The notes under the pieces were generated by a model. It did no database searches. It saw only the letters and a list, made by a program, of their open reading frames with translations, and had not been told where the DNA came from. The translations under genes and the position numbers were made by a program. This document shows, one piece after another, positions 14,850 through 19,209 of a stretch of DNA of 26,049 nucleotides. The stretch spans positions 1 through 26,049 of the IMG/VR virus record IMGVR_UViG_3300006139_000005; one strand, written 5' to 3'. Source of the stretch: a virus. Its lineage: Duplodnaviria; Heunggongvirae; Uroviricota; Caudoviricetes. Positions within the stretch are counted from its first letter, which is position 1. Every line of letters begins with the position of its first letter.

Positions 14850-14883
14850 ACAAAACCTCAGCGATTCTAAGCCGCTGAGGTTT
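14850..14883 (-). terminator. Intrinsic terminator closing the RNA island
   Basis: AAACCTCAGCG-9 nt loop-CGCTGAGGTTT followed by TG, ~20 nt downstream of the last tRNA. Confidence 0.75.
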
Positions 14884-14902
14884 CAGTCATTATGATATTT
14901 TG

Positions 14903-14978
14903 TGGTGCGCCAGAAGGGACTCGAACCCTCGACCTACCGCTTAAAAGGCGGTTATTCTACCAGCTGAATTACTGGCAC
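14903..14978 (-). tRNA. tRNA-Lys(UUU)
   Basis: Cloverleaf; anticodon arm ACCGC-CTTTTAA-GCGGT; CCA encoded. Confidence 0.95.
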
Positions 14979-14988
14979 ATATGTATAT

Positions 14989-15054
14989 GAGACACTACCT
15001 GGTTTGACAGTCAGGATTTGATTTTGAAGTCAAATAAATTGCTGTACGTGTCTC
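14989..15054 (-). ncRNA. Stem+ACAGCAA element, copy D (skipping-rope-like)
   Basis: GAGACAC-GTACAGCAAT...GTGTCTC; one of four copies. The family name is from recall and unverified. Confidence 0.55.
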
Positions 15055-15056
15055 AA

Positions 15057-15275
15057 GGTACACTTTCTCAGGCTCACAAAGTCCCGTTGCGGTATACAAG
15101 CGCCCCGCCTCCTGATCGGGTTGTCGTGTTGCTCTCCACGATGTCACAGTTACTATCGGTCTGTATTCCGTCCGACTTTCACGGAGGGGAGCGACCCCGC
15201 ATATTGTTGCTTACCCTTCCTCATATGTACTCCGGGCCAGAGCTGCGCGTTCTTTCGGGACTACGAGGATGTTCC
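15057..15275 (-). ncRNA. Unassigned structured RNA, ~220 nt
   Basis: Closing stem AGUCCCG/CGGGACU (15256-15262 with 15080-15086) and several internal hairpins; no credible ORF. Confidence 0.55.
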
Positions 15276-15276
15276 G

Positions 15277-15369
15277 TGGCGGCGGAAGTAGGACTCGAAC
15301 CCACAAGCCATTCATCACGGCCAACAGTTTTCAAGACTGCTCCCCGCACCTACTGGGGTCAATTCCGCC
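15277..15369 (-). tRNA. tRNA-Ser(UGA)
   Basis: GCAGT-CTTGAAA-ACTGT; long variable arm; G73; CCA encoded; atypical D-arm. Confidence 0.9.
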
Positions 15370-15372
15370 ATA

Positions 15373-15461
15373 TGGTAGGGGAGGTGGGAGTTGAACCCAC
15401 TCAGCGCATAAGCGCAACGATTTTACAGACCGCCCCGACTCTCCAACTTCGGCGCTCCCCT
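15373..15461 (-). tRNA. tRNA-Tyr(GUA)
   Basis: GCGGT-CTGTAAA-ATCGT; long variable arm; CCA encoded. Confidence 0.9.
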
Positions 15462-15473
15462 ATACGTATATTG

Positions 15474-15802
15474 TAAAAGTGACTCCGCTCCCAGCCTCAC
15501 CACACACCTTTACGCTGTGCCATATTGCCACCACAACTCAGCCTCATGTGCAAAGCCGTAGTCCTTTCAGCCTTTCTATCGAGGAGCAGGGGGATTAGTG
15601 TTTCCCGTCTTAGTCTACCAAGGATTTCGATGTAACAAGTACACCACACTTGCGGCTACGGCCCAGGCAGATTTCAGCCTACCTTTGGTGCTACAACGGC
15701 ACCTAACCGCTATTTCTTTTACGCCCAGTCACTCCATCATTGAAGGCCACCTTGGATTCCGTGCGCCACTCACACACGTGATATGTTATCTCAATCGGGC
15801 GA
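15474..15802 (-). ncRNA. Unassigned structured RNA, ~330 nt
   Basis: Long-range stems and many hairpins (see findings); GC-rich; no credible ORF. Confidence 0.55.
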
Positions 15803-15803
15803 T

Positions 15804-16912: not shown

Positions 16913-16976
16913 GGGACACATTTTTGAGCTATCAATTAAAAGTTGATTTCATGTGTGAAGTTGCTGTTAGTGCCCC
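16913..16976 (-). ncRNA. Stem+ACAGCAA element, copy C (skipping-rope-like)
   Basis: GGGGCAC-TAACAGCAA...GTGTCCC. Confidence 0.55.
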
Positions 16977-16979
16977 TTG

Positions 16980-17454: not shown

Positions 17455-17555
17455 GAGACGCATCAATGAAAAAAGTGAAAATAGGAAATGTCTGTGCAAG
17501 ACTAAAAAATTGTAAAATTTGATAGAATTGTTTTTGAAATTGCTGTTAGCGTCTC
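17455..17555 (-). ncRNA. Stem+ACAGCAA element, copy B (skipping-rope-like)
   Basis: GAGACGC-TAACAGCAAT...GCGTCTC enclosing a long AU-rich loop. Confidence 0.55.
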
Positions 17556-17558
17556 AAC

Positions 17559-17618
17559 GGGACACGTTTTCTTCTTTTACCCAAAAAAAGTTTTTGTTGA
17601 GATTGCTGTTAGTGTCCC
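17559..17618 (-). ncRNA. Stem+ACAGCAA element, copy A (skipping-rope-like)
   Basis: GGGACAC-TAACAGCAAT...GTGTCCC. Confidence 0.55.
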
Positions 17619-17622
17619 AGAA

Positions 17623-17699: not shown

Positions 17700-18116
17700 T
17701 GGTGGAGCCGGCGGGAATCGAACCCGCGTCCGAAATTCCTACATGAACAAGACCTTCTTACGCAATAGACGATTTTTCAGCGTTGCTTTTCAGCGGGCGC
17801 TTGCGATACCGTCAAATCTGTCCCAGGGCGCACAATGGTTTGCACACCTCCACCACCTTGTCTCTTTTAGCAGTAACAAGGAAAACTGCGCATTTGGACG
17901 TATCTTTACCTCATACATTCACCCGTCCAGTAGGTATGTCGTTTTGGAATCCTACCGTCAATCAGGCGGCAACCCTCTCAGCCACAAAAGCAGCAAAAGC
18001 GGGGTGGATCATTACAACAGTTTCAGAGTTGTCATTTCATTTTTTGTATGCCTTTAGGCGGTCATCTACCTGCGAGTCTTGCACTCTCAAAACCCCGTCG
18101 AATCCTTTACGGCCCC
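17700..18116 (-). ncRNA. ssrA: tmRNA
   Basis: 5' GGGGCCGTAAAGGATTCGAC; 3' T-arm GCGGG-TTCGATT-CCCGC then CGGCTCCACCA with G3:U70; internal tag frame ending GCC GCC TGA. Confidence 0.95.
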
Positions 18117-18434: not shown

Positions 18435-19051
18435 TTGAAGAACTTAATCTCTCAATCACACTTATTACTGGGTCTTCACCCTACCTCCATTATCTTCTTT
18501 GTTGTTCCGCCACCAGGGAGACAAGTCTGAGCTTTGGGGAGCGACCCCTAACTTCTTGCCCCAGCGCATCAGCGCCATATCCTGCACGGGATTGTCTACC
18601 CGCAAATTTCACCGTTCATTCAGAAAATTTCATTATTGACCTGTATAGTCTACATACTTTCAAAATGAAAAGATGTTTTCAATCTGTCCTACGGCTACTT
18701 TAACCAGCGACTTTCGTTATAGCCGAATTTCTTCGGCATCAAGACAGAAGCACATTATTGGTTTTACCTCCGTATAATCGGCTACCACCCCGATATACTG
18801 CAAGGCTTATTCTCCACATGGAGCGTCTATTGCTGCGCCCGAAAGTTCTGTGCGTTACAAAGCGACAACTCTTAGCGACATACGTTTTTCTTGGCGGTTT
18901 CCGCCTCCTCGCCCTGCATCGCTGCATGACGACGATCCTCCCTGCAAGGTATCCCTCGCAGTTCCTACCGAAATTACCATATGCCTCGGAGTGCTGACAC
19001 ACTTTGTTCACCGAGTTAGTAATAAGCATGATTCAAAGATTAAGTTTTCAA
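18435..19051 (-). ncRNA. Large structured RNA, GOLLD-like (ROOL is the alternative)
   Basis: The two ends pair over ~31 bp and there are many internal hairpins. The 3' half has motifs I recall from GOLLD (CUGAAUGAACGGUGAAA, GGGGUCGCUCCCC, CUCAGACUU, GGGUGAAGACCC). The setting in a phage tRNA array fits both families. Confidence 0.72.
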
Positions 19052-19159: not shown

Positions 19160-19188
19160 TACTATACCACAGGTTTCAGTGGATGTCA
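19160..19188 (-). promoter_or_regulatory. SigmaA-type promoter for the RNA island
   Basis: TTGACA-17 nt-TATAGT on the minus strand, with TG just upstream of the -10 box; ~26 nt before tRNA-Thr. Confidence 0.85.
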
Positions 19189-19209
19189 ATAGCGACGAAC
19201 AAAATTTTT

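Follow-up and report, generated by a model that had tools for sequence, protein, structure and literature searches.

The ROOL and GOLLD RNAs form cages whose structures have been solved. In the cryo-EM structure of ROOL (RF03087), loop L18 makes bridge B6, a symmetric intermolecular Watson–Crick kissing interaction between the same loop in two chains (PMC12286853). L18 comprises five nucleotides (563–567) on the closing pair 562–568 and belongs to P18, which follows P17 and precedes the last hairpin (PMC12286853 Supplementary Table); according to Kretsch et al., it is too conserved for covariation analysis (PMC12286853). GOLLD (RF02032) also has a symmetric kissing loop, L21a, with covariation between GC and CG dinucleotides. 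Oligomers have further been shown for two conserved RNAs of less than 200 nt, manA (RF01745) and EGFOA (RF02955), in the case of manA through kissing loops (bioRxiv 10.64898/2026.07.01.735769). Here we describe an uncatalogued accessory RNA family of gut phages that is smaller than first proposed and is unrelated to ROOL except for the kissing-loop module.

The window, by which we mean the whole stretch of 26,049 nt that was analysed, is part of the record of a 117-kb virus. Its minus strand carries an RNA operon of 19 tRNAs, a tmRNA and a ROOL RNA, with a DNA-binding protein gene on one side and terminase and portal genes on the other (Table 1). The phage tmRNA, at 17700–18116 (92.7 bits), was missed by ARAGORN. 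Between tRNA-Thr and tRNA-Tyr lies a 342-nt spacer (15462–15803) with no tRNAs and no Rfam match, which is kept in the related loci L002–L005 and is likely to be another structured RNA.

Table 1. Features of the RNA operon and of the core RNA, in window coordinates
Feature	Position	Strand	Basis
Sigma-70-like promoter of the RNA operon	19161–19189	−	11/12 match; consensus match only
ROOL RNA (RF03087)	18451–19039	−	381.9 bits; L18 hairpin 18536–18548 is the shared 13-mer
tRNA-Ser(UGA), upstream neighbour of the core RNA; 3′ end at 15277	15277–15369	−	
Upstream module M1, closed by CCUCGUA/UAUGAGG, outside the core RNA	15219–15269	−	Kept in L002–L005
Core RNA, conserved, ~143 nt (the gene itself)	15057–15199	−	Homologs, covariation, clean absence in L002–L005
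H1 hairpin; UCGCU loop, with symmetric kissing proposed via G15192–C15191	15186–15198	−	Stem 100% paired, compensatory changes
H2 hairpin, T-loop-type loop UGAAA plus 2-nt bulge GU	15171–15185	−	3/4 pairs compensatory
H3 (15170–15157) plus putative pseudoknot ACAG 15164–15161/CUGU 15149–15146	15146–15170	−	H3 100% paired, one compensatory pair
H4 hairpin, loop GWRAGCAA-like	15124–15141	−	3/4 pairs compensatory
H5 hairpin, conserved purine-rich loop	15104–15120	−	98.6% paired, one compensatory pair
H6 (15097–15092 with 15063–15058), internal loop, H7 (15086–15069), YGWGA loop motif	15057–15097	−	
Downstream module M3, closed by UGAGACAC/GUGUCUCA, carries ACAGCAA repeat	14988–15056	−	Family D7
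tRNA-Lys(UUU), downstream neighbour	14903–14978	−	
Terminator-like hairpin at operon end	14851–14885	−	Consensus match only

The original prediction placed a structured RNA of about 220 nt after the tRNA-Ser and described it as a possible mini-relative or partner of a GOLLD-like RNA, with which it shares an exact 13-nt hairpin. All of the strings quoted in it are present, on the minus strand: AGUCCCG from 15262, CGGGACU from 15086, UCCUCGUA from 15269, UAUGAGGA from 15225, UCCGUGAAAGUCGGACGGA from 15185, and UCGUG and CACGA at 15141 and 15128. The 13-mer GGGGUCGCUCCCC was confirmed at both of its sites, 15198–15186 and 18548–18536. The large RNA is, by contrast with its proposed identity, ROOL, since the model of the conserved GOLLD 3′ domain finds nothing in the 117-kb record at E ≤ 1. 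In the Rfam ROOL consensus, the 13-mer falls on a conserved element, the UCGCU hairpin of the model, which helix order and loop length map to L18. Of the proposed tertiary-contact or protein-binding module, the contact part is thus backed by a published kissing loop, and the protein-binding part is weighed below. Kinship with ROOL ends at this hairpin: the ROOL model gave no match to 15057–15276 at E ≤ 5, and model R1 of the new family matched ROOL over only these 13 nt (E 0.4), so the smaller RNA is not a mini-ROOL. By chance, a shared 13-mer arose in 0.16% of shuffles when only the large RNA was compared and in 8.5% when the whole window was; in each of the two RNAs the stem varies on its own, so the exact identity is partly coincidental.

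Comparison with related phages, retrieved through the adjacent gene, divides the 297-nt spacer from tRNA-Ser to tRNA-Lys into three modules. In L002–L005, where the adjacent protein is 99% identical, positions 15214–15276 and 14988–15056 are kept and the 157 nt between them (15057–15213) are swapped for 5 nt, leaving the core RNA cleanly absent; in more distant phages, ~15057–15199 is present after unrelated upstream sequence. The gene is therefore ~143 nt, gained and lost as a cassette, and the 220 nt are two separable modules rather than one unit. The stem AGUCCCG/CGGGACU, which had been thought to close the RNA, spans two different modules and lacks conservation: even a loose complement in the 120 nt upstream was found in only 7 of 98 homologs, the window included, and the CGGG of CGGGACU pairs locally with CCUG. 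The helix UCCUCGUA/UAUGAGGA of the original prediction is supported. The core RNA occurs once in the 117-kb record, and L231, a contig of independent origin, matches the spacer at 99% identity, so the window copy is no assembly artefact. The near-identical phages with and without the core RNA offer a natural comparison for function.

The flanking modules are separate from the core RNA. M1 has a closing stem of 7–8 bp with pair-preserving changes in L002–L005 and is present only in the window's phage lineage; other lineages have a different three-way module at this position (for example, L006 at about 912–998). M3 shows compensatory changes in L002–L005 and L310, and its family D7, a stem plus an ACAGCAA repeat, has four copies on the minus strand (14988–15056, 16949–16977, 17528–17556 and 17591–17619). 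A protein reading was also considered and rejected: the antisense 152-aa ORF at 15018–15476 would be frameshifted by the net loss of 152 nt in the near-identical phages, and on the element's minus strand the ORF check found no ORF of 60 aa or more covering it.

Searching viral, metagenome and genome collections by pattern recovered 101 distinct full-length homologs, a set with many near-copies from one group of 40-kb phages. They come from gut viral and metagenome contigs and from genomes labelled Oscillospiraceae, Dysosmobacter, Hominicoprocola, Gemmiger and other Clostridia, and the window copy is ~60% identical to most of them. Nine diverged homologs (type B; L068, L096, L315, L320 and others) share the 5′ domain and have a diverged 3′ half; by eye, helix order seems kept, with H4–H7 seemingly retained. 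Copies consisting of the 5′ domain only, fused to other modules, exist as well. An Rfam scan of the 219-nt element returned no match at E ≤ 5, and none of the homologs matched an Rfam family over its cut-off. No homolog was found by BLAST against GenBank phages, and against 151 order-level genomes model R1 returned only its seed genome and weak partial matches. Among the papers searched there was no description of the RNA family or its longer motifs, and these motifs were not found in the first 200 of the 408 supplementary files of Fremin 2021; with those sets checked in part, a prior listing among the ~10,000 Fremin 2021/2023 candidates is possible. With covarying homologs and no Rfam match above cut-off, the claim of a structured RNA of no recognized family holds, and that this is a real structured RNA is highly probable. 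A widespread gut-phage family is thereby added, with a covariance model ready for use.

The fold emerges from the alignment itself. RNAalifold, unaided, gave seven nested helices identical to the named structure, in the 5′ to 3′ order H1 (UCGCU loop), H2 (UGAAA–GU), H3, H4, H5, H6 and H7. Across 36 MAFFT-aligned sequences, 96.3% of cells in this structure are paired and 18 of 34 pairs show compensatory double changes, including all seven pairs of H6; H7 is 98.6% paired. No shuffle of 500 reached this covariation and slid controls were at most 42% paired; kinship inflates pair counts, and the slid control retains kinship. About 50 positions of the RNA are invariant, many of them in loops. A single strand of the 219 nt folds no better than its shuffles (z = −0.10 for the minus and +1.12 for the plus strand), so the evidence is comparative, not thermodynamic. 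The predicted minimum-energy fold of the window copy (−47 kcal/mol) buries the 3′ strand of H1, compared with −33 kcal/mol for the consensus helices; tertiary contacts must therefore cover the difference if the consensus forms.

Two such contacts can be proposed. The loop of H2 is of T-loop type. The second base of its bulge and the base that ends the H7 loop combine as C–G, U–G or U–A in 98 of 101 sequences, suggesting that the two make contact over a long range; in the window, U15175 may pair with G15073. The H3 loop plausibly forms a pseudoknot, with moderate support: ACAG/CUGU in the window is replaced elsewhere by CAGG/CCUG and GUAG/CUAC, and the cross-pairing control was weak. Two further helices had been predicted. 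UCGUG/CACGA is supported, and UCCGU/ACGGA is better drawn as two elements, first the T-loop hairpin UCCG-UGAAAGU-CGGA and then a helix of its own. A pairing of CGCUCC in H1 with GGAGCG in the H5 loop was discarded, as H1 varies while GGAGCG is constant.

Homologs conserve the H1 hairpin, and its loop varies in a restricted manner. UCGCU is the loop of ~87 of ~125 distinct 5′ domains. Symmetric kissing predicts that adjacent loop bases covary between palindromes, and targeted loop scans were therefore run. Position 3 was other than G in ten viral contigs, eight with AU, one with AC and one with UC, the single-change loops being UCACU and UCUCU; where G3 was kept and position 4 was not C (four contigs), the loop was always UCGAU, in which UCGA is palindromic, and the copies were all 5′-only. 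The targeted scans found no GU intermediate, and position 5 varies singly. Copies with AU are present in the sister lineage of the window, among the 120-kb phages and among the 40-kb phages. They are not a single clade (p-AU 7e-68; at least three changes forced by well-supported branches, in a tree built on 140 columns), although they could stem from few events spread by recombination.

The loop is also replaced as a whole. In five homologs (L022, L023, L181, L189 and L219), H1 carries GACG, a two-base-pair kissing tetraloop (PMC5874298); as cited there, the GACG tetraloops of the gammaretroviral SL-C and SL-D hairpins kiss through two G–C pairs (Kim and Tinoco 2000), a likeness at the loop level only, the RNAs being unrelated. 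Among the scanned loci, ROOL P18 has GACG in seven distinct Rfam-verified hairpins and again in L189, and UAGCU in six sequences, so that Rfam-verified L18 interchanges UCGCU and UAGCU with GACG as H1 does. The H1 loop falls in this L18-type self-complementary class (UCGCU/UAGCU/GACG). With its GC-to-AU changes, and with GACG swaps that ROOL L18 mirrors, H1 is very probably a self-kissing plug of the same kind; that it acts as a kissing loop we regard, from comparative evidence, as probable. The family thus provides natural compensatory variants of an L18-type loop, GC to AU, and GACG in both RNAs.

We propose that the core RNA, which keeps a seven-helix fold and is inherited as a discrete cassette, is a compact stand-alone RNA of ~143 nt that self-associates through H1, a model we rate as somewhat better than even as a whole. 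It would be transcribed with the tRNA operon and freed by processing of the neighbouring tRNAs; its operon position points to a discrete RNA. The bulge of the H2 T-loop would pair with the H7 loop, probably together with the H3 pseudoknot, to compact the molecule, and H1 would then kiss H1′ symmetrically through a central self-complementary dinucleotide (GC, AU or CG), as in ROOL L18. The predicted outcome is a homodimer or small homo-oligomer, homotypic pairing being the simplest reading; that pairing is mainly homotypic we put at slightly above an even chance. As to role, a stable multivalent RNA scaffold or decoy late in infection is the likeliest we can name, and a tentative guess. At 143 nt, the RNA is an easily made test molecule for phage RNA self-assembly.

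Several alternatives to self-association were weighed. The RNA might instead be monomeric, its H1 loop binding a protein or docking internally as a recognition or stability motif, which we consider unlikely. The dominance of UCGCU is what such a motif might show, and the hairpin GG-UNGCN-CC also caps at least one further unrelated phage-array RNA, as a protein handle might. A sequence-reading protein, however, leaves the GC-to-AU double changes and the palindrome-keeping GACG swaps unexplained, and ROOL employs the same loop from RNA to RNA. Among 101 distinct full-length sequences, moreover, the AU state has no correlate at any alignment column within the RNA, so the loop's partner is not internal. 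A broader reading, in which one interchangeable kissing plug (UCGCU/UAGCU/UCAUU/GACG) runs through several unrelated gut phage operon RNAs, with the core RNA self-assembling and also cross-kissing ROOL or other array RNAs to form mixed RNA-only assemblies or to regulate cage closure, seems to us just as unlikely.

A slightly less probable alternative is that the core RNA is a heterotypic partner of ROOL, its H1 kissing L18 so that it docks onto or caps half-cages. The two loops are identical in the window, both RNAs carry UCGCU in L008, L009, L014 and L026, and both carry GACG in L189, which fits cross-pairing too; as a symmetric loop cannot distinguish self from ROOL, incidental cross-kissing is plausible where both are present. 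Their distributions, however, are independent: ROOL was not found in the 125-kb record G172 or in 18 records of ~40 kb that carry the core RNA or just its 5′ domain, nine of which are near-complete and have the full RNA, and the complete 138-kb ROOL phage G174 is without the core RNA, as are L003, L004 and L028. Where both RNAs occur, their loops can mismatch (UCGCU versus GACG in L022, UCGCG versus UCAUU in L024). An obligate partnership with the large RNA is contradicted by these observations, and a dedicated one is unlikely. L189 is a chromosomal or prophage locus whose RNA (1501–1638) has a shortened 3′ half and whose ROOL lies at 240–795.

Less probable still is that the element is a cis-acting spacer that aids processing or stability of the tRNA polycistron and is never a free RNA. 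Of 159 full-length loci, 114 have their start no more than 150 nt from the 3′ end of a tRNA or tRNA-like sequence (65 no more than 25 nt), 5′-domain-only copies exist, and mouse-gut RNA contigs, which are uninformative on ends or level, show no sign of accumulation. Deletion of the core RNA nevertheless leaves the neighbouring tRNAs intact, its neighbours vary among phages, and the invariant positions exceed what a spacer needs. In the mouse-gut RNA run X2 (Logan contigs), a 202-nt contig covers 15116–15317 at a depth of 2.4, like protein-gene contigs, whereas ROOL contigs (18485–18913) have depths of 233–688 and are high in two runs, X2 and X7; genes cannot be ranked by contig depth, and RNAs shorter than 200 nt frequently drop out, which makes the depth at the core RNA uninformative. 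The ROOL depths are consistent with strong ROOL expression, a level that contigs cannot prove.

A decayed or rearranged known RNA, either group II intron domain I or raiA, is highly improbable. In some homologs group-II-D1D4-4 scores 12–28 bits, below its cut-off of 49 and owing to the T-loop hairpin, and most homologs, not the window copy, share a 13-nt hairpin word with Clostridial raiA RNAs. But the window copy has no domain I match, no domain V match lies near any copy scanned, and no Intron_gpII (domain V/VI) match lies in the window or homolog loci. A search of five carrier genomes with the raiA model came back empty, as did one of 14 raiA loci with model R1, and strong covariation indicates ongoing selection on the core RNA's own fold.

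The core RNA can be set beside described RNAs as follows. It shares with ROOL (PMC5737381, PMC12286853) the location in phage tRNA arrays, the identical L18-type hairpin, the UCGCU–GACG interchange and a GGUGAAA motif; it differs in size (143 nt versus ~580 nt), in its independent inheritance, in the lack of model similarity past the 13-nt hairpin and in having one evident kissing loop where ROOL has many bridges. GOLLD, also located in tRNA arrays, differs in size and fold. Because manA and EGFOA oligomerize, they are the nearest functional precedent for the behaviour predicted here, although their helix layout is unlike that of the core RNA. Tested directly, the EGFOA model gave no match over its cut-off and none at the element, and scans with all families, run on the window region and on homologs, gave no manA match. 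The core RNA family resembles raiA (RF03072; PMC12968392) in a UGAAAG motif followed by a CGCAGGCAAAACG hairpin, whose loop is pseudoknotted in raiA (P3b/PK1) and plausibly so here; equivalents of the closing P1, PK2 and P4–P8 were not seen, and raiA has no H1. The cobalamin riboswitch model (RF00174) gave no match. FMN and cobalamin riboswitches contain a T-loop/pseudoknot module, which the proposed H2–H7 contact resembles, in which the bulge of a GUGAAAGU-type hairpin pairs with a distant GAGCC-like loop; the core RNA lies between tRNAs rather than in a gene leader and has no expression platform.

Several further observations were made at related loci. A tandem pair of H1–H2-like units, with loops UCGCU and UAGCU, occurs at L031:5874–5933, and in 40-kb phages a D12-methyl RNA (RF02950) lies ~110–140 nt downstream of the core RNA (L037:1438–1501 and L058:532–595). 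In L379, a tRNA match (1955–2026) falls inside a ROOL match (1600–2195), so that a tRNA appears to be embedded in ROOL. Finally, a second unassigned RNA family has a GG-U(C/A)GC(U/A)-CC hairpin as its 5′ start (L004:6900–7050, also L096, L097, L197, L205, L229, L251, L279 and L313); in L003 and L004, which are without the core RNA, this family comes after the tmRNA, at the place taken by tRNA-Pro in the window.
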